Of a DNA stretch of 52,488 nucleotides, positions 114-52,100 are shown in pieces. The notes beneath the pieces were generated by a model. That model ran no database searches, was not told the origin of the DNA, and worked only from the letters and a program-made list of their open reading frames with translations. The position numbers and the translations under genes are program-made. Numbering within the stretch: the stretch's first letter is position 1; every line of letters begins with the position of its first letter. This DNA comes from Candidatus Woesearchaeota archaeon (lineage in GTDB: Archaea; Nanobdellota; Nanobdellia; Woesearchaeales; WJKL01), in contig WJJM01000005.1 of assembly GCA_014729675.1 (NCBI GenBank), positions 1-52,488 on the forward strand, in the 5' to 3' direction.

Positions 114-200
114 GAGTCATTTTCTAATCGGAGATACTGAACTTAAAACCCTTCTTATTTAATAGGCGATTTGGGAACTTGCTTCCGCTTCGCTCCAGCA

Positions 201-291
201 CCTTTCCACTCTCAATTTCTCAGCCTATGCTCACTCTCGTTCGCATGGGAGAAATTGGAGGTCAGGGGAAAAGAACATCATTAGGCAAAAT
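201..291 (+). repeat. Cassette-boundary element 1 (CCACTCT hairpin plus core site)
   Basis: CCACTCT at 206, stem CAATTTCT/AGAAATTG, core AAGAA-CATCA-TTAGGCAAAAT; homologous to 758-851 and 1484-1576. Confidence 0.7.
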
Positions 292-306
292 TGAGAAAGG
301 GTAAAT

Positions 307-687
307 TTATTCTCTAAGTTTAAAATTTAATACTAATGACTCAAATGCAGAAGGTTCAATTTTTTCTTGTATTTTACTTTTGTTTAAATAAAGATAACAA
401 CATAATTCTTTGTATTTTTCAGGTGCATCATCTGAAATTCCTATAAAATGAATTGTAGCATCTTTAAATCCAGCATCTGTAAGTTGATGACCAAGAAATT
501 CAGGTCTTTTATTTTTATCAACATAATTTTTCCACATGTCAATTAAAACTTCACCATGTTCTTTGGGAGAATATTCAAATCCTTTTTCCCAACCACCTTG
601 CGGTTTTGGGATATAACCCCAATATCCACCATGACCTGAACCAAAACGAAGATCAACACCATCTACATTATCTATATTTATAGTCAT
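307..687 (-). CDS. Hypothetical protein (cassette gene 1)
   Basis: ORF 307..726. The ATG at 687 (MTINID) is preferred because a TTTATA box lies ~25 nt upstream and the 726 ATG falls inside the flanking inverted repeat. Confidence 0.65.
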   Translation of the reverse strand: MTINIDNVDGVDLRFGSGHGGYWGYIPKPQGGWEKGFEYSPKEHGEVLIDMWKNYVDKNKRPEFLGHQLTDAGFKDATIHFIGISDDAPEKYKELCCYLYLNKSKIQEKIEPSAFESLVLNFKLRE

Positions 688-757
688 TATTAAACAAAAG
701 TAAAACAAGTATAAATATTTTACCATTTCTCAACTCAAAATTTATTTCATAAATTTT

Positions 758-851
758 GCCCTTCCACTCTAAGATTTTCAGCACTGACCTCCTTATCAGT
801 CGGTCGTGGAAAATCTTGAGGGTAGGGTTGCCTAATACAATTGTGTCCAAT
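758..851 (+). repeat. Cassette-boundary element 2
   Basis: CCACTCT at 764; bulged stem CTC-t-AAGATTTTC..CAC-t-GACC / GGTC-GTG-GAAAATCTT-GAG; core CCTAA-TACAA-TTGTGTCCAAT. Confidence 0.75.
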
Positions 852-889
852 AAATCTGGAGTCCTAAATCTAGAAAGGGGCAAGAAAAC

Positions 890-1357
890 TTAAGAAAATA
901 ATCTTTTAAACCAATTTATTATTTTCTGTAAGAAATTTAATTTACAATCCTCAGGGCAATTACATTCATTTTCAATTTCACTATCACAAATCTCATCTCC
1001 ACAATTAGAACATATTGAAAGATAACCTGTAGGAGGATTCCAATTACATTTTGAATCAAAATATTCTTTCTGTTTTATAGCAACCAAACCTTCACAACAA
1101 GTATTTTCTGTTGGTGCAATTCCAAGCTCTGCACAAGGCAGTTCTGCATATTGACTGCATGGCTCTCCTCTTTCACCCCCTTCACCATCCATTGGATCAC
1201 ATTTAATTCCGCTTTCTAAAGTGCAGCTGTTGTTGTATGCATCATTATATTGACCACCATAAAGTCTACATCTTGTCCATGCAGGATTAGGTATTGCAGA
1301 AACTAATATTGCACCTAAGATAAAACTAATTGCAAAGGAAATAAATATTTTCTTCAT
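890..1357 (-). CDS. Secreted Cys-rich protein with DUF333-like N-terminal motif (cassette gene 2)
   Basis: Signal peptide, NPAxxxCxxxGG motif, CGDxICxxxxENxxNCPEDC motif, amphipathic C-terminal tail FLQKIINWFKRLF. Confidence 0.75.
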   Translation of the reverse strand: MKKIFISFAISFILGAILVSAIPNPAWTRCRLYGGQYNDAYNNSCTLESGIKCDPMDGEGGERGEPCSQYAELPCAELGIAPTENTCCEGLVAIKQKEYFDSKCNWNPPTGYLSICSNCGDEICDSEIENECNCPEDCKLNFLQKIINWFKRLFS

Positions 1358-1483
1358 TTTATGATATTTTATACCTTCTTATTTATTAAATTTTTGTTTT
1401 CTTGCCCTTACTATCTTTTATTAAGTATCGCATTCGCTCTTTTTATTTAACGGACTCCAGATTTACTCCTCCGCTTCGCTACG

Positions 1484-1576
1484 GTCGCCCCACTCTAAGT
1501 TTTGAGAAGGTCAAATGCTTCCGCTTTTGTCCATCAAATCTCGAAGGCAGGGCTACCTAACATCATTAGTTGCAAT
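1484..1576 (+). repeat. Cassette-boundary element 3
   Basis: CCACTCT at 1490; imperfect stem closed by GTCGCCC/GGGCTAC; core CCTAA-CATCA-TTAGTTGCAAT. Confidence 0.7.
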
Positions 1577-1600
1577 TAAGACTTCGGCAGTTACCAAGAA

Positions 1601-1828
1601 TTAAAATAATTTATTGACTATCTGTTCTATATTACTACAAAATTCTGGATTTGCTGTATATATGGTGGCCATCATCACAGGCACACTCTGGTAGTAAGTG
1701 TATCTCTTAATCTCTTTTTTACTCATATCACTTTTATCTCTAGGAATAAATGAAAAAAGTCCTAAATAAGGTATTTTGTCTACCCAGTTGGGCACATAAG
1801 AATTTACAAATTTTTCAAGTTTTTCCAT
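1601..1828 (-). CDS. Small hypothetical protein (cassette gene 3)
   Basis: 75-aa ORF with an upstream TATA-like AT box, enclosed by inverted repeats. Confidence 0.6.
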   Translation of the reverse strand: MEKLEKFVNSYVPNWVDKIPYLGLFSFIPRDKSDMSKKEIKRYTYYQSVPVMMATIYTANPEFCSNIEQIVNKLF

Positions 1829-1943
1829 TCTTATAAAATCATATAACCTCTATTAATAAATTTTTCTATTATCACCTGCCTTAGTCTTAAATTGCTCTGT
1901 TTTTCTCCGCAATCTTTTTAAAACAATATTCTTAATTTAACAT

Positions 1944-2867
1944 ATGCCAAAGCTCCCAAAAGAATTAAAACTTTTATTAGAAAAACAGCAGAACGAGGTC
2001 ATAGGAGAACATTCAGCTGTAAAGATATGCACCTGGACAAAAAAATCATTGAAAGACGAAGGAGTCTGCTATAAGGAGAAGTTCTACGGCATATCATCCC
2101 ATAGATGCTGCCAATTAAGCCCGTCTATGAATTTCTGTCAAAATTCTTGTATCTTCTGCTGGAGGCCTATTGAACACACCGTAGGAACAGAGATGAAGGG
2201 CAAGATTGACGACCCAAAAACTTTGATAGACAACGCGATAAAAGCACAAAGAAAGCTTCTTAACGGCTTTCCGGGCAATCCAAAAACAAACATGAAAAAG
2301 TTCAAACAAGCTCAGGACCCCAACCAGTTTGCCATATCTCTAAGTGGCGAACATACAATCTATCCAAAACTTGGAGAACTTATAGCTGAAATAAAAAAAA
2401 GAAAAGCAACGTCATATGTTGTTACAAATGGCATGCTCCCAGATAAGATAAAAACATTATCTCCTCTCCCGACCAACCTATACATATCCTTAGATGCACC
2501 AAATGAAACAATATTCAAAAAAGTAGACCGACCAAAGCTAAAAGATGCATGGAAAAGATTGAACAAGTCCTTAGATATACTAAAAACACTAGACACAACA
2601 ACTGTCCTAAGGGTAACTATGATAAAAGGCATGAACATGATAAAGCCGGAAAAATACGCAGAACTAATAGAAAAAGCACAGCCAGATCATGTAGAGCTAA
2701 AGGCCTATATGTTCGTCGGCTCCTCAAGACACAGGCTAACCATAGACAACATGCCTCGCCATCATGAAGTAAAAGAATTCACAGAACTCATCCTAAAACA
2801 TCTAAAAGATTACAGCTTAAAAGACGAAAAAAAAGAATCAAGAGTAGTTCTTCTCAAAAAACTATAG
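1944..2867 (+). CDS. taw1: 4-demethylwyosine synthase (radical SAM, Taw1/TYW1)
   Basis: HSAVKICTW, CYKEKFYGISSHRC, CQNSCIFCWRP (CxxxCxxC), ELKAYMFVGSSR, SRVVLL. Confidence 0.95.
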   Translation: MPKLPKELKLLLEKQQNEVIGEHSAVKICTWTKKSLKDEGVCYKEKFYGISSHRCCQLSPSMNFCQNSCIFCWRPIEHTVGTEMKGKIDDPKTLIDNAIKAQRKLLNGFPGNPKTNMKKFKQAQDPNQFAISLSGEHTIYPKLGELIAEIKKRKATSYVVTNGMLPDKIKTLSPLPTNLYISLDAPNETIFKKVDRPKLKDAWKRLNKSLDILKTLDTTTVLRVTMIKGMNMIKPEKYAELIEKAQPDHVELKAYMFVGSSRHRLTIDNMPRHHEVKEFTELILKHLKDYSLKDEKKESRVVLLKKL

Positions 2868-4094: not shown

Positions 4095-5450
4095 ATGAAA
4101 AAAACATTGACTTTTTTTACAATCCTGATATTAGCTGCTAGTCTGGTTTCAGCGACAGAAACAAATCCAGGTCACTCAGCAGATGAGATAGGCGGGACAG
4201 ACATAGCAGACAGAACATTCCAGGATGCAGATTATTCTTTCCAGGATAATGTTGGGATAGGGACAGACAGCCCGACAAGATTATTGACTCTATCGGGTGA
4301 TGGCCCGGATGGCCTTAGGATAGAAAACAGCGGAGGAGACCCTAAAGCAAGGATTCTTGTTGATTCTAGTGACAGAGGTTTGCTTACATTATACAACTCA
4401 ACAGGTTCAGAAATAGTAAATCTAAGGACAGAAGGCGACAGCCATATCCGCGGCGGCAACGTAGGCATCGGAACATCATCTCCAACATCTAAACTCGAGG
4501 TAAAATCAGACCAGGGAAATGTTTTCATACTGAAGAACTCTTTAGACAACAACATATTCAGAGTATATAGCAACGAAGACGACCCCATTAATAATGGTGT
4601 CGTATTGCAGTTATCAAACGCATCAGGCGACATAAAAGCTGTAATAAGTTCAAGGGCAGAGCAGGACACTTATTTCAATGCAGGAAGCGGAAGCAACGTC
4701 GGCATCGGTACATCTTCACCATCTACCCCTTTCCATGTTTTGAGTGGAAGCGGTAATGAAGGAATCTATTCTCCAAGTGGATGGACAGTGGGTTTATTCC
4801 AGAGAAATGATGATTCTAATTACCATGCCAGAGTATCCATCTTAGCAGGTACTTCACAGACTGCAGGAATCTGGATGGGTGATAAAGATAATGAAGACAA
4901 TGGGGCCATCTGGACAGACAATTCAGACAATTCTCTTAATCTTGGAAATGGCCTATCCAATGCAGTCATAACTATAGATTCATCAGATAATGTCGGCATC
5001 GGAACAACAAGCCCAGGTGCTAAACTACAGGTGGGAGACATAAAGATAGGAAGCAAGCCTAGTGGCCTAGCAGGTCCTACAGGAGGAGATGGCATACATG
5101 CAGATGGACATCTGCATATCCAAAGTGATGGAAGTAATAATGGCAATGGAGATATTCAGTTGAATAAATGGTCATCAGGCGATGTATTCATGGTATTAGG
5201 TGGCGGAAGTGTCGGCATTGGCACAAATTCTCCAAGCTACAAACTGCATGTTGAGGGAAGCCTTGGAGCACATAACTTCTATGACGAACAGTCTCCTACA
5301 TATTACCTTAATCCTGGAGAGGCAGGCACTTCAGCTAACCTCAGGGGAGATATCACAGCAGGAGGGCTTTCAGGTACAGGCACAGCAAGAGTTTGTGCAT
5401 TAAGCGATGGAACACTGTGCAGGAACGGAGATTCAGGCTGCAGCTGTTGA
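4095..5450 (+). CDS. Secreted fibre/adhesin-like protein with five (N/S)VGIGTxSP repeats
   Basis: Signal peptide from MKKTL; five VGIGT.SP repeats; Gly/Ser/Asp/Asn-rich; Cys-rich C-terminus. Confidence 0.75.
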   Translation: MKKTLTFFTILILAASLVSATETNPGHSADEIGGTDIADRTFQDADYSFQDNVGIGTDSPTRLLTLSGDGPDGLRIENSGGDPKARILVDSSDRGLLTLYNSTGSEIVNLRTEGDSHIRGGNVGIGTSSPTSKLEVKSDQGNVFILKNSLDNNIFRVYSNEDDPINNGVVLQLSNASGDIKAVISSRAEQDTYFNAGSGSNVGIGTSSPSTPFHVLSGSGNEGIYSPSGWTVGLFQRNDDSNYHARVSILAGTSQTAGIWMGDKDNEDNGAIWTDNSDNSLNLGNGLSNAVITIDSSDNVGIGTTSPGAKLQVGDIKIGSKPSGLAGPTGGDGIHADGHLHIQSDGSNNGNGDIQLNKWSSGDVFMVLGGGSVGIGTNSPSYKLHVEGSLGAHNFYDEQSPTYYLNPGEAGTSANLRGDITAGGLSGTGTARVCALSDGTLCRNGDSGCSC

Positions 5451-5485: not shown

Positions 5486-6073
5486 CTATATTTCTATTAT
5501 CTTCCCGTCAGGACCAGGATTTACAACAACACAATCTTTTATCTTATCCTTCTTTCCGGAATTCTCATGAAGGTGCCCTGATATCGCCAACAATGGCTTG
5601 GCCTTCTTGATAAACTTTGTTATGCTTTTATTGCCCACATGCTCATCAAGTACAACATCTATCTTTGTACAGTAAGGAGGAGCATGCGTAACCAGCACCA
5701 CCTTCCTGCCTTTATACTTATCAGCCCATTTAGAAGAGATCCTTTCAAACCTTTTATCTCTTAGACTAAATCCTCCCCCTCCAAATCCAAGAAAAACATA
5801 ATCTCCCATCTTAAACACTTTTCTGTGTATGTCCTTAAGGTTTTTAAACATCCTGCATCCTTCCTTTATCTCAGAAACAGTCTCATGATTTCCGTGTATC
5901 ATCAGAACCTTCTTTCCGATCTTGTCAAGCTCGACCATCATCCTCTCAAGACCGTCTCCAAAAAGAGAGATGTCTCCTGCATTGATCAATATATCAGCCT
6001 TCTTGGCCTTCTTCACGATCCTTTTGATAGCAGCCTTGTTCGCATGCGTATCTGCAAAAGCAAGTATTTTCAT
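5486..6073 (-). CDS. Calcineurin-like metallophosphoesterase
   Basis: DxH (ADTH), GD, GNHE, THAPP, GHLHE, NPG motifs; start MKILAF. Confidence 0.92.
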   Translation of the reverse strand: MKILAFADTHANKAAIKRIVKKAKKADILINAGDISLFGDGLERMMVELDKIGKKVLMIHGNHETVSEIKEGCRMFKNLKDIHRKVFKMGDYVFLGFGGGGFSLRDKRFERISSKWADKYKGRKVVLVTHAPPYCTKIDVVLDEHVGNKSITKFIKKAKPLLAISGHLHENSGKKDKIKDCVVVNPGPDGKIIEI

Positions 6074-6113
6074 AAAGAAAAGAAAAAAATAGTGCAATAT
6101 ATAAAAGTTTACA

Positions 6114-6731
6114 TCATTGTCTTGAATATTTCAATGCATTCTTAGGGCAAACATCGATGCACCTGCCACACTTTATACAGTCAGGCTTATATTTTATCTC
6201 ATTTACTTTTAGGTGCATCGGACATACCTTGCTGCAAAGACCACAATCGATGCATTTTTCTTTGTCTACAACAATTGTATTCTTCTTTAGGTCAAACAAT
6301 CTCTGCAAGGTGCCTGCTGGGCATATTTGGCACCATGCTCTTGGACTGACAAATATCGCTATGACTGATATGATCAATGTTTGCATTATGTAAATTCCTA
6401 CAAATATCCCTCCTAACTTAACAAATACACCTTCAGATCCAATTATCCTGAAGACCATAAATCCCATCATAATGATAAGCAAAGCAATCCTGAATCCAGA
6501 ATTATAAAACAGTTTAGGGATCTTTATCTTTCTTGATATCTTGCTTAATACAAGATCATTGAAGATACCCCTTGAACAAAGATTTCCGCAGAACCACCTT
6601 CCCTTAGAAGGAGAGATTCCTATCAGAAGCAGCATATCCAAAAGCAAAAGATAACCTAAGATAGGATATATCAATCCGCCTATCACTACAACAGGGATTA
6701 TTATGGGGCATATAAGGCGTATTCTTAGCAT
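6114..6731 (-). CDS. Membrane polyferredoxin (NapH/MauN-like 4Fe-4S binding protein)
   Basis: TM helices, RWFCGNLC and RAWCQICPAG motifs, two CxxCxxCxxxCP motifs; start uncertain. Confidence 0.85.
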   Translation of the reverse strand: MLRIRLICPIIIPVVVIGGLIYPILGYLLLLDMLLLIGISPSKGRWFCGNLCSRGIFNDLVLSKISRKIKIPKLFYNSGFRIALLIIMMGFMVFRIIGSEGVFVKLGGIFVGIYIMQTLIISVIAIFVSPRAWCQICPAGTLQRLFDLKKNTIVVDKEKCIDCGLCSKVCPMHLKVNEIKYKPDCIKCGRCIDVCPKNALKYSRQ

Positions 6732-6732
6732 T

Positions 6733-7554
6733 TTATATCTTCTTCTTAAGAATTTCACACATCCTGCAAACTTCTTTCCTGCTTGGCTCTCCGCATTCGC
6801 TGCAGTACCTCAGCTTCTTATCACTCTTAAATTCTTCCTTCAGCAAAGGCAGGAACTCCATAAAATTTCTTACTATATTCTCTTTGACCTTATCACCCAT
6901 ATCATCAAGGATACCTCTCACTTTCCTCCTGAACACGTCAGCAGAACATGGGCATGGTTCATACACAACAGGAAACTTCTTGACTTGAGAATACCTTCTT
7001 ATCTCATCATTTGAACAGAAAAACAAGGGTTTTATCCTCTGGACAAACTTCTTATCCTTCAATGTGCCTGACTTCGGCCCCATCCCCAATCCAGCCTCAA
7101 GATTGCTCTTAAGCAGGTTCATCATCACAGTCTCTGCAGTATCATCAAGATTATGGCCTACTGCAATCTTATCCCCTTTAAGCTCCCTCGCTTTTTTGTT
7201 AAGAAGCCATCTTTTTATTATCCCGCATATCATGCAGTTGTTCAGCTTTGTCCTTTCCCTGATATAGCACATAGATGATCCTATCTCTTTTCTTATATCG
7301 ACAATATTAAGCTTTATCCCTTCCTCCCTGCAAAACTTTTTGACATTAGCAAGATTCTTCTCAGACCACTCACCTATCTTAAGATCTATAACCATACCCT
7401 CAACATCATAGCCAAATTTATTAAGAAGATAAAGAACAGTTGTAGAATCCTTGCCCCCTGAACAACCCACTATTACTTTATCACCCCTTCCTATCAGGTC
7501 ATGCTCTTCGATAGTCTTTCTTACTTTCTCCTCAAATTCCGCAGCATATCCCAT
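6733..7554 (-). CDS. tRNA 2-thiolation protein, TtuA/Ncs6/TtcA family
   Basis: SGGKDS PP-loop, CMICG, GHNLDD, CPC, C-terminal CxxCG..CxxC zinc finger; start at MGYAAE chosen. Confidence 0.9.
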   Translation of the reverse strand: MGYAAEFEEKVRKTIEEHDLIGRGDKVIVGCSGGKDSTTVLYLLNKFGYDVEGMVIDLKIGEWSEKNLANVKKFCREEGIKLNIVDIRKEIGSSMCYIRERTKLNNCMICGIIKRWLLNKKARELKGDKIAVGHNLDDTAETVMMNLLKSNLEAGLGMGPKSGTLKDKKFVQRIKPLFFCSNDEIRRYSQVKKFPVVYEPCPCSADVFRRKVRGILDDMGDKVKENIVRNFMEFLPLLKEEFKSDKKLRYCSECGEPSRKEVCRMCEILKKKI

Positions 7555-50240: not shown

Positions 50241-50735
50241 AACTTTTAAGATTTTATTATTTATTTTATTCTCTATTTTTTCTAAGCTTTGCTTAAAACT
50301 TTTAAATATAGAATATTTTTAAAAATTTGATTATGACTTTTTATTTGCATACATCAATTTATATTTTTAATATTGAAAATAATCAGGATAGATTATACAT
50401 TTAAATCAACCCAAAATGCCTAACTTCTATAACCTTAGAATTAGGGCTTAATATGTTCAAATTCACCCTTTTTAGCCATTTTTATCATTTTTAGTGTAAA
50501 AACTGCGTTTAATGTACCTTAGATGCCGTTTTATGAATCTCTACAGAAAAATGTAAAACTATAATCTAGATCAATGAAATAACACAATTAATTTTCTATA
50601 TTATAAAACATTTAGTTTTTGCTTAATACTTTTATATTCTATTTATTTTAGTTTTTGCTTAAATGTTTTATACGCACTGACCACTGTTCAAGTGTAGGCA
50701 TAATATTTATATATACGAACATCTTTTTACTAATA

Positions 50736-51221
50736 ATGGAAAGAAATCCTAATCAAAGAAGAATAATAAAATGTGAAGGTTGTGGGGAAGAAAAAGAACA
50801 TCATGCAAAAGAGATGTGTTTGAACTGCTATAGGCGAATTGCATGGAAAAGAAAGAATGTTATCTGTAAAAATTGTGGAAGAAACTTACCCCACAAAGCA
50901 TATGGACTTTGTCAAACATGTCATATTAAGCTGCACCATTATGATAAAGTAAAAGCCCATAATTATAGAAAATGGCATAATGTAGATTTAGATTTATACC
51001 GAAAAATAATTAAAAAATGTCTAATATGTGATTTTGATAAAATTGTTGATTTACACCATTTAGATGGAGATCATAAGAATAATTCTGAAGAAAATCTTAT
51101 TGGATTATGCCCAAACCATCACAAATTACTCCATGATATGCGTTTTAAGGAAGAAACTCAGAAAGAAATAGATAAAAGGCTCAATCCTGAATATTTTAAA
51201 CGCACTTTTCAAAACAATTAA
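50736..51221 (+). CDS. HNH endonuclease with two N-terminal zinc-finger repeats
   Basis: Two CxxC..HxAxxxCxxC repeats; CxxC..DLHHLDGDHKNN..NL..LCPNHH. Confidence 0.88.
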   Translation: MERNPNQRRIIKCEGCGEEKEHHAKEMCLNCYRRIAWKRKNVICKNCGRNLPHKAYGLCQTCHIKLHHYDKVKAHNYRKWHNVDLDLYRKIIKKCLICDFDKIVDLHHLDGDHKNNSEENLIGLCPNHHKLLHDMRFKEETQKEIDKRLNPEYFKRTFQNN

Positions 51222-51251
51222 ATACTTCTAAGTTAATTATAATTAAAAAAG

Positions 51252-52100
51252 ATGGTGCTCCAAAAACTAGAAACAGAACTAAGGCTAAGAGGATTTTCAG
51301 AAAAGACAGTAAAAAACTATATTTTCTATAATCAAAAATTCTTAGATTTTATAAACAAGCAGCCAGAAGATATCCAAGAAGATGATATAAAATCATTCAT
51401 TGCACATCTGATGTCAGACAAAAACTATAAGCCTGCATCAACAAACTTAGCTATCTGCTCTTTAAGGTATTTCTATGAAAAAGTCCTTGAAAAAGAGATA
51501 TTTACAAAAATAACTCCTCCAAAATCAGAAAAAAAGATCCCTACAGTTCTAACAAAAGAAGAATTGAGCCAATTGTTCAATGCAATAAATAACAAAAAAC
51601 ACAGGATACTATTAGAACTCATGTATTCTTCAGGATTAAGGGTCAGTGAAGCAGTATCATTAAAGTTTGAAGACCTAAACTTAAATGAAAAAGTGGGTAT
51701 TGTACGCCAGGCAAAAGGAAGAAAAGACAGGATCATAATCCTCTCAAATAATACCGTAGACAAACTGGAAAAATATAAGAAAAAAAGAGATAAAAAGAAA
51801 CTATTCCCAGATAATCCTTATATATTCCCATCAAACAAACAAAAAGAATCCCATATGTCTATAAGGCAGGCTCAGAAAGTGATAAATGACGCAGCTAAAA
51901 AAGCAGGCATAAAAAAGAGGGTATTCTGCCATTCATTAAGAAGCAGCTTTGCAACACATCTGTTAGACTCAGGCACAGATATAAGAGTCATCCAGGAATT
52001 GCTAGGCCACTCTAACCTCTCTACTACAGAAAGATACACAAAAGTCTCTACAGAGCAATTAAAGAAAGTAAGATCTCCTTTTGATAATATTAAATTCTAA
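51252..52100 (+). CDS. xerA: Tyrosine recombinase, XerA/integron-integrase-like
   Basis: SAM-like N-domain (LRGFSEKT..Y), SGLRVSE, KG.K.R, HSLR, LGH, T..Y; no IntI-specific insertion visible. Confidence 0.88.
   Translation: MVLQKLETELRLRGFSEKTVKNYIFYNQKFLDFINKQPEDIQEDDIKSFIAHLMSDKNYKPASTNLAICSLRYFYEKVLEKEIFTKITPPKSEKKIPTVLTKEELSQLFNAINNKKHRILLELMYSSGLRVSEAVSLKFEDLNLNEKVGIVRQAKGRKDRIIILSNNTVDKLEKYKKKRDKKKLFPDNPYIFPSNKQKESHMSIRQAQKVINDAAKKAGIKKRVFCHSLRSSFATHLLDSGTDIRVIQELLGHSNLSTTERYTKVSTEQLKKVRSPFDNIKF

Follow-up and report, generated by a model that had tools for sequence, protein, structure and literature searches.

Why three small genes at the very start of an archaeal contig should each be enclosed by an inverted repeat of their own is the question raised by positions 1-1914 of contig WJJM01000005.1 (assembly GCA_014729675.1, Candidatus Woesearchaeota archaeon), of which a stretch of 52,488 nt, here called the window, was analysed. 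The window opens at the contig start, and the genome is a 1.44-Mb archaeal assembly of 72 contigs that is 91.67% complete. In bacteria gene capture is classically the work of integrons, and an earlier note on this DNA had proposed that the three genes are self-contained mobile cassettes of a non-canonical integron-like system. Based on comparison with relatives and metagenomes, we conclude that positions 1-1914 probably represent the distal end of a chromosomal, integron-like cassette array in Woesearchaeota-type DPANN archaea. The proposal holds in that the cassette ends pair far beyond an R box and that such arrays are linked to a recombinase in relatives. However, the mobile unit exceeds the repeat-gene-repeat form that had been described, as a conserved hairpin module and both half-sites of a dif-like core belong to it as well.

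The key to the locus is a set of three mutually homologous intergenic elements, higher in G+C and unnoticed earlier, which separate the genes at 198-286 (element A), 756-846 (element B) and 1482-1571 (element C). Each element consists of an imperfect, covarying hairpin of about 70 nt followed by a core of the form RYYYAAC-N3-(G/A)TTRRRY-NCAA. The base of the hairpin is conserved (CCxCTCT ... GAGxGGxAGGG), while the upper stem covaries. A covariance model was built on the three window elements, and cores were scored with a position weight matrix (PWM) of 25 nt. All parts of the elements are given on the plus strand. The main hairpin of element A lies at 198-269 (consensus fold; model match 198-286, 92.9 bits) and is followed at 270-290 by the core AAAGAAC ATC ATTAGGC + AAAA, which reads R''-spacer-R'-NCAA and is the putative crossover site (PWM score 20.9). 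Element B has its main hairpin at 756-829 (model match 756-846, 97.6 bits), with a z-score for folding as single-stranded DNA (ssDNA) of -3.6 on the plus and -3.8 on the minus strand, and its core GCCTAAT ACA ATTGTGT + CCAA at 830-850 (PWM 14.6). The main hairpin of element C at 1482-1554 (model match 1482-1571, 84.4 bits) folds more weakly on its own, with a z-score that is not significant, and its core ACCTAAC ATC ATTAGTT at 1555-1571 gave the highest PWM score of the three (27.2).

The comparison set comprised 151 genomes sampled from the host order, the window genome counted in, and the covariance model found matches in nine of them, with 14 matches, in arrays, in the unpublished genome G141. 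In the resulting alignment of 31 rows the main hairpin was 87.5% paired and 22 of its 23 pairs varied on both sides. This degree of pairing was never equalled in 500 shuffles (0/500), and partners that had been slid along the sequence gave at most 56% pairing. Searches of the window genome with the covariance model, nhmmer and regular expressions gave no further element copies, and a whole-genome PWM scan gave only background-level matches outside the three sites. An Rfam scan of positions 1-2500 returned just two sub-threshold chance matches and nothing relevant. A pattern scan of viral contigs gave eight matches, about the chance estimate, none of which had the hairpin according to the covariance model, and hence there was no sign of a viral carrier.

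The repeats that had drawn attention to the locus find their place in a plan that is common to the arrays. In element orientation this plan is arm', AAAACT(T/C)CTC, a mini-hairpin with a CTTCG-type loop, the main hairpin, R'', 3-4 nt, R', NCAA, arm and gene, and the arm that follows site N forms an inverted repeat with the arm' that precedes site N+1. All repeat pairs listed in the earlier note were recovered. Around gene 1, 284-292 pairs with 752-760 (9/9) and 291-305 with 719-733 (14/15); around gene 2, 851-864 pairs with 1452-1465 (14/14) and 878-889 with 1396-1407 (12/12); around gene 3, the 19 nt of 1572-1590 pair with the 20 nt of 1876-1895, with one indel and two mismatches. The three small genes are co-oriented as described, being minus-strand open reading frames (ORFs) at 307-687 or 307-726, 890-1357 and 1601-1828. 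The suggestion that each gene would form the loop of a long stem was also borne out by minimum-energy ssDNA folds, since every cassette on either strand was closed by long-range stems (280-288/828-836 plus 291-310/711-733 for the first cassette, 851-889/1396-1465 for the second and 1572-1614/1856-1895 for the third). That every gene has a repeat pair is correct, but the pairs are not wholly private, as arm families exist and the pair of cassette 2 recurs in two other genomes. In a generic control with the 110-nt flanks of 1409 ORFs of the window genome (mean 16.5, standard deviation 3.3, 99th percentile 27), gene 2 scored 31 and was a clear outlier among the top five, whereas genes 1 and 3 scored only 21 and 23 and were no outliers. 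The ORF call of gene 1 overlaps one arm in this control, and the other high scorers were mostly A/T low-complexity matches.

Tests directed at the arms of adjacent sites, with a score threshold of at least 26, were more telling. This score was reached by 17 of the 19 adjacent element pairs of the window and its relatives, compared to 851 mismatched pairings whose 99th percentile was 25, and by 33 of the 40 cassettes found with the weight matrix. The same architecture was present on 57 metagenome contigs with 205 sites, 44 of these contigs carrying at least two sites on one strand, and there 86 of 123 cassettes reached the score, compared to 13 of 1285 mismatched controls. The arm begins exactly 4 nt past R' in 28/40 cassettes and in 76/123 metagenome cassettes. 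Similarly, the four variable letters of R' at site N were fully complementary to those of R'' at site N+1 in 29 of 43 cassettes, against 5/55 within one site and 237/2927 for non-adjacent sites; in the metagenomes the figures were 91/123 against 141/1285 in the controls. Within the window R' of element A (280-286) is the exact complement of R'' of element B (830-836), that is 7/7. As in integrons, where the crossover falls at G|TT, the cassettes start with a TTRRRY complementary to their own RYYYAAC box; in the controls the variable letters were fully complementary in only 8-11%. Moreover, the arm pair of cassette 2, in both its start and end segments, carries quite different genes in G141 and G107, so that it is known from three genomes. 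The covariation of half-sites across a cassette is a signature of the integron type and suggests that circular cassettes recombined inside the core, where R'' and R' would once have been complementary neighbours, and an exchange in the conserved centre between R'' and R' would assign the hairpin module to the cassette on the arm' side. A diverged pair of paralogous cassettes in G141 (69% identity) held no usable breakpoint information.

G141 supplied 16 of the 31 alignment rows, most of the first array statistics, including the test of 19 pairs, and the cargo list with restriction-modification, OLD and HNH genes. The loci of G107, G157, G090, G116 and G017 and the metagenome results contain no direct G141 sequence, although the matrix used there was partly trained on G141.

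Several spots related to these sites were seen outside the arrays or in unusual arrangements. On contig C56 of the window genome, outside the window, two core half-sites with NCAATTTTT flanks stand head to head at about 1890-1940; both strands score here (14.0 and 13.6), and two cassette starts could have been joined in inverted orientation. Locus L104 (G017:C5) has core sites at 416, 516 and 616, at an exact spacing of 100 nt and with the first two identical downstream, which look like a tandem of ORF-less units adjoining the recombinase. At locus L068 sites lie about 2450-3980 nt upstream of the recombinase, and ORF-less units of 157-165 nt that share the start tcaatttttccccaaaattttgg alternate with cassettes of 500-545 nt.

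The arrays of relatives also point to the enzyme that may move the cassettes. G157, a genome that is 100% complete, encodes a XerA-type tyrosine recombinase of 278 aa in a gene divergent from its array. A core-like site that lacks the hairpin is found about 220 nt upstream of the recombinase start, and beyond it come four or more cassettes that have arms and half-sites that match; one metagenome contig has the same arrangement of recombinase and array. The protein scored 233 bits with NF040815 (archaeal XerA; cut-off 220), and its best solved relatives are the XerA structures 5hxy and 4a8e (E about 1e-41). With TIGR02249 (integron integrase) it scored 201 bits in two stretches, which is under the cut-off of 265, and in the alignment with IntI4 (2a3v) its residues 170-194 span residues 175-240 of the chain, about 40 residues being missing at the position of the extra domain of IntI.

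At a cut-off of E<=1e-70, orthologs of this recombinase were present in 28 of the 151 genomes (29 genes). For 15 of the 29 genes the contig ends within 800 nt upstream, as is expected since adjoining repeats break assemblies. Core sites on the strand that points away from the recombinase gene were found upstream at 13 of 33 ortholog loci and, when only the 11 loci with 1.9 kb or more available upstream are counted, at 9 of them; in number of sites, 46 were on this strand and 4 on the other. In element orientation the recombinase thus stands on the 5' side of the arrays in relatives. A second XerA paralog, 36-44% identical, also occurs in genomes with the array-linked gene, and this paralog group is present in 47 of the 151 genomes. 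In the window an HNH-like ORF (judged by eye) and then a XerA-type recombinase gene (51252-52100) occupy 50655-52100, near the far end of the contig. Background PWM scores in the window peak at 11.8 on the minus strand at 50393, about 860 nt upstream of the latter gene and reading away from it; the spot is not clearly palindromic and may be due to chance. At locus L042 (G094:C71) an IS110-family transposase gene (6274-7251) directly adjoins two elements at a contig end.

Taken at the level of mechanism, these observations may be accommodated by the following scheme. On the plus strand the mobile unit would comprise TTRRRY-NCAA, the arm, a gene that has its own promoter and may point either way, arm', the mini-hairpin, the hairpin of about 70 nt and RYYYAAC-N3/4-G. 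Excision as a circle would bring the two ends together in a long interrupted palindrome of arm', hairpin module, R''-spacer-R' and arm. The R''/R' pair would be comparable to a Xer/dif core, with inverted half-sites, a centre of 5-6 nt and an outer NCAAT conserved on one side, and a dedicated XerA-family tyrosine recombinase, located at the array head in relatives, would exchange strands inside the conserved centre. The crossover would lie close to the apex of the palindrome, whereas in attC it lies at the base. Integration would then split the palindrome, so that each integrated gene would become bracketed by its own inverted repeats. As ssDNA, the arms and half-sites of one cassette would pair and align the two crossover points for precise excision. 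Catalysis by the array-linked enzyme, the exact position of cleavage, the circular intermediates and a role of single-strand folding are all predicted here from sequence comparison.

A number of points weigh against the array interpretation or its details. The window genome has no ortholog of the array-linked type of recombinase, at 91.67% completeness and with an array that leaves the contig at its start; its two best XerA-like genes are only 39% and 32% identical to the array-linked one, and the gene at 51252-52100 falls in the other paralog group. Between elements B and C the half-sites are complementary at only 4 of 7 positions. Sites on the opposite strand occurred at 4 of the 33 ortholog loci, and no site at all was present at 2 of the 11 loci where the upstream sequence is long. 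Mismatches showed no strand bias of G-T against A-C, with 17 and 16 in the arms and 21 and 13 in the hairpins, so that no single folding strand is indicated and the pairing may persist for another reason. The covariance-model alignment and the PWM are fitted to the family and were trained largely on one unpublished genome, G141, which supplied about half of the training set of the matrix, and the metagenome contigs were recovered with a 23-nt pattern taken from this same element family. No sequencing run that contains positions 1-2400 was listed. Finally, the hairpins are followed by a T-run in coding orientation and could serve as transcription terminators.

The alternative that survives best, which we nevertheless regard as unlikely, is a pile-up of integrative mobile elements exploiting Xer (IMEX) at a chromosomal dif site. 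The core would then be the host dif, ordinarily a single site at the replication terminus, and the enzyme the housekeeping XerA; small circles would have entered one after another through double-strand Xer recombination, the arms being incidental or otherwise used. The array recombinase does score as an archaeal XerA, with 5hxy and 4a8e as its nearest structures, and the core has inverted half-sites about a short centre. According to passages of PMC5357621, xerA and dif form one module in some archaea, mobile elements integrate at dif, and the dif core consists of two inverted arms of 11 nt around a centre of 6 nt. In the arrays the inner 6-7 nt are inverted about a centre of 5 nt (C-N3-G) or of 6 nt (C-N4-A), the latter in sites with a four-letter spacer, whose R' mostly starts with ATT. 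Of the outer 5 nt, those on the right are conserved (NCAAT), whereas those on the left overlap the end of the hairpin (..GGG..) and are not inverted. The core may also resemble the bacterial dif consensus.

What speaks against such a pile-up is the patchy distribution of the array-linked clade, in 28 of 151 genomes, and the second XerA paralog that carriers keep elsewhere; besides, double-strand recombination leaves unexplained both the covarying half-site letters and arms of 13-60 nt. The arrays resemble the IMEX phages CTX, VGJ and TLC in the Xer-family enzyme, as seen in the arrays of relatives, and in the inverted half-sites about a short centre, and also in the presumed tandem integration of circular elements at one site (as passages of PMC5357621 describe for IMEX). 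They differ from Xer/dif and IMEX in the dedicated accessory paralog that would take the place of the housekeeping enzyme, in dozens of gene-sized cassettes instead of phages, in the archaeal host, and in the conserved side hairpin and cassette-specific arms. CTX phage integrates as folded single-stranded DNA. The pdif modules of Acinetobacter plasmids are small cargo modules bounded by Xer-type sites, and are flanked by oppositely oriented sites, whereas all cores of one array described here point the same way.

It is considerably less probable that the elements are non-mobile intergenic modules, such as terminators or insulators, repeats acting in read-through RNA (for example processing stems), or parts of an ordinary variable gene island. 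AGTTTT-type runs after both hairpins in coding orientation, loops of the TTCG and GAA(A) types, which are stable, and a TATA-like stretch in each cassette, seen by eye only, would fit such modules. Left unexplained, however, are the RYYYAAC/GTTRRRY core and the complementarity across cassettes, the fixed start of the arm at +4, the linkage to a recombinase with its strand polarity, and the identical arm pairs round different cargo. Pairs of G-T are not in excess on either strand, and the distal arm of gene 2 lies, judged by eye, upstream of the likely promoter, so that the gene's own mRNA cannot hold both arms.

Cargo transposons with terminal inverted repeats, of a kind similar to insertion sequences (IS) or to miniature inverted-repeat transposable elements (MITEs), with a transposase encoded elsewhere and the hairpin as a marked target, are very improbable. 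Each unit does have terminal inverted repeats, and arm families recur with different cargo. Neighbouring cassettes differ in their arms, in conflict with the identical repeats of a transposon family, and therefore one transposase could not read the arms by sequence. By eye, no target-site duplication could be made out. The enzyme that recurs next to arrays is a tyrosine recombinase, the IS110-family transposase adjoining the elements of L042 only, and no HUH transposase was seen beside arrays, although HUH or IS200/IS605 genes were not specifically searched for. A MITE with the arms as its ends around the element was rejected because the arms pair across genes and not around the repeated elements. 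IS200/IS605 and REP/RAYT elements have imperfect intergenic hairpins that are read as structure; the present elements share such hairpins, but their boundaries have a core of the tyrosine-recombinase type.

An ordinary integron cassette array of the CALIN type (cluster of attC sites lacking integron-associated integrases) is the least probable of the alternatives. R' does fit GTTRRRY, R'' does fit RYYYAAC and archaeal integrons are known, Nanoarchaeota among them (relevant passages of PMC9668308). However, R'' and R' are 3-4 nt apart and do not form the base of a hairpin, which instead precedes R'' on its 5' side. The recombinase lacks about 40 residues where IntI4 has its extra domain and falls under the integron-integrase cut-off (201 against 265 bits), and the longest ORF is about as often opposite to the site orientation (19 cassettes) as along it (17), which departs from the mostly promoterless, co-oriented cassettes of integrons. 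Inspection in either orientation did not give the order R''-L''-loop-L'-R', and canonical attC sites were rejected on this ground.

The interpretation as an integron-like array nevertheless shares much with integrons. Both are tandem arrays of small, variable cassettes that are often ORFans or related to toxin-antitoxin systems, both have structured bounding sites ending in a GTTRRRY box, and in both a cassette begins with letters complementary to the RYYYAAC box at its other end. In relatives, though not in the window, a divergent tyrosine recombinase gene also stands at the array head by a simpler first site, as in integrons. Unlike in integrons, R'' and R' are adjacent, with no R''-L''-loop-L'-R' hairpin, the long pairing joins the two ends of the integrated cassette with the gene inside the stem, the recombinase is XerA-like and without the IntI insertion, genes occur in both orientations, apparently with their own promoters, and the sites measure about 150-250 nt in all. 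We tentatively suggest, as a possibility with somewhat less than an even chance, that this is a second kind of integron in Archaea, in which a XerA paralog acts on dif-like cores, each cassette contributes a palindrome of about 200 nt that is split at its apex, and the stems guide excision of single cassettes from ssDNA.

Within the window the array can be followed from end to end. Positions 1-165 are the remnant of a further cassette that is cut by the contig start, and the array and any integrase would extend leftward from there. The left flank of element A (166-197, plus strand) contains at 180-196 the CTTCG-loop mini-hairpin motif TGCTTCCGCTTCGCTCC, of direct-repeat family D1; when the flanks of all matches were compared, motifs of this class preceded most elements in relatives. 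In cassette 1 the proximal arm (291-310, plus strand) pairs with 711-733, with the additional pairing of 284-292 with 752-760, so that the distal arm region (711-760, plus strand) has the two segments 711-733 and 752-760. The ORFan gene between them (307-726, minus strand) encodes 126 aa from an ATG at 687 or 139 aa from 726 and matches no Pfam family. The proximal arm of cassette 2 (851-889, plus strand; inverted repeat I2) pairs with 1396-1465 and starts with the motif AAATYTGRAGTCCTAAA, which is also present in cassettes of G141 and G107. Its distal arm region (1396-1465, plus strand) consists of 1396-1407 and 1439-1465, and the end segment is likewise common to cassettes of these two genomes. 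The gene (890-1357, minus strand) encodes a cysteine-rich protein of 155 aa with no Pfam family and a hydrophobic, signal-peptide-like N terminus (by eye). Its C-terminal part of about 60 aa occurs as a domain in far larger ORFs, of up to 2014 aa, in nine other genomes of the order. Homologs of this gene in the order were rejected as copies of the same cassette, as only the cysteine-rich domain is common and lies within larger proteins.

A mini-hairpin motif of the same family D1, CTCCTCCGCTTCGCTA, precedes element C at 1466-1481 (plus strand). The third cassette has its proximal arm at 1572-1614 and its distal arm at 1856-1895, which pair with each other (both plus strand), and a 75-aa ORFan gene on the minus strand at 1601-1828 that has no Pfam family. 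The distal arm is followed at 1896-1914 (plus strand) by TCTGTTTTTCTCCGCAATC, a truncated remnant of a terminal element, which we regard as the array end because neither hairpin nor core comes after it. This truncated element closes the array about 48 nt before taw1 (1944-2867, plus strand), a radical SAM wyosine-formation gene (Pfam PF08608 and PF04055) that is a conserved chromosomal neighbour and was found in 29 of 31 relatives searched. From about position 1915 the sequence is, by eye, like the region upstream of taw1 in a genome of the same genus. The region upstream of taw1, which the earlier note had singled out for comparison, carries other DNA with no core sites in this same-genus genome (G001) and three relatives of the family, and window bases 1-1913 had no match in these four. 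At locus L013 (G001:C6), about 6040-6240 and upstream of taw1, a different, GC-richer segment contains CTTCG-loop mini-hairpins (ggcactcacagcttcgctgtt) and no core site; a segment of this kind is also present once in the window genome, on contig C62 near 4330-4362.

The cargo of the family is diverse. Cassettes had a median length of 743 nt and ranged from 110 to 7991 nt. From the metagenome cassettes 173 ORFs were extracted, and among the 150 that were scanned 98 had no Pfam family, while about 21 of the 52 with a match were related to toxin-antitoxin systems (PIN, ParE, HicA, MazF, Fic, RHH and others). In G141 the cassettes carry a restriction-modification set, an OLD-family nuclease, HNH, PIN and others, and this array is placed on an archaeal chromosome because the same contig has an intein-bearing PolB. 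One cassette of this unpublished genome, at locus L037 (G141:C20, 1568-9469), measures 7.9 kb between matching half-sites and encodes an NgoPII-type endonuclease, a Dcm methylase, Vsr, HNH, a Cas4/RNase H-like protein and an OLD-family ATPase-nuclease, so that an entire defence island would have moved as a single unit.

In the relevant passages of Ghaly et al., 2022 (PMC9668308), the archaeal integrons reported are canonical ones, which were found with attC models and have integrases of the IntI type; archaeal attC sites were also assayed there by suicide conjugation with delivery of either strand. Our full-text literature search brought up no account of archaeal cassette arrays linked to Xer, the supplementary attC lists of PMC9668308, which might include this order, being outside the search, and excerpts of a review of archaeal tyrosine recombinases likewise contain no description of them. 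If our interpretation is true, a system of this logic that relies on a Xer-type enzyme, and whose sites have another topology, would escape surveys based on attC. The second kind of integron proposed above could stand to integrons as a sister or precursor and so connect them with Xer/dif recombination, and it would offer a testable case for structured-DNA recombination sites evolving from dif-like cores. It might also supply a compact pair of recombinase and site for tools. With recombinase orthologs in 28 of the 151 sampled genomes, the system appears in a sizeable fraction of one DPANN order, and it would, if true, help to explain how small symbiotic archaea shuffle their defence and toxin-antitoxin genes.

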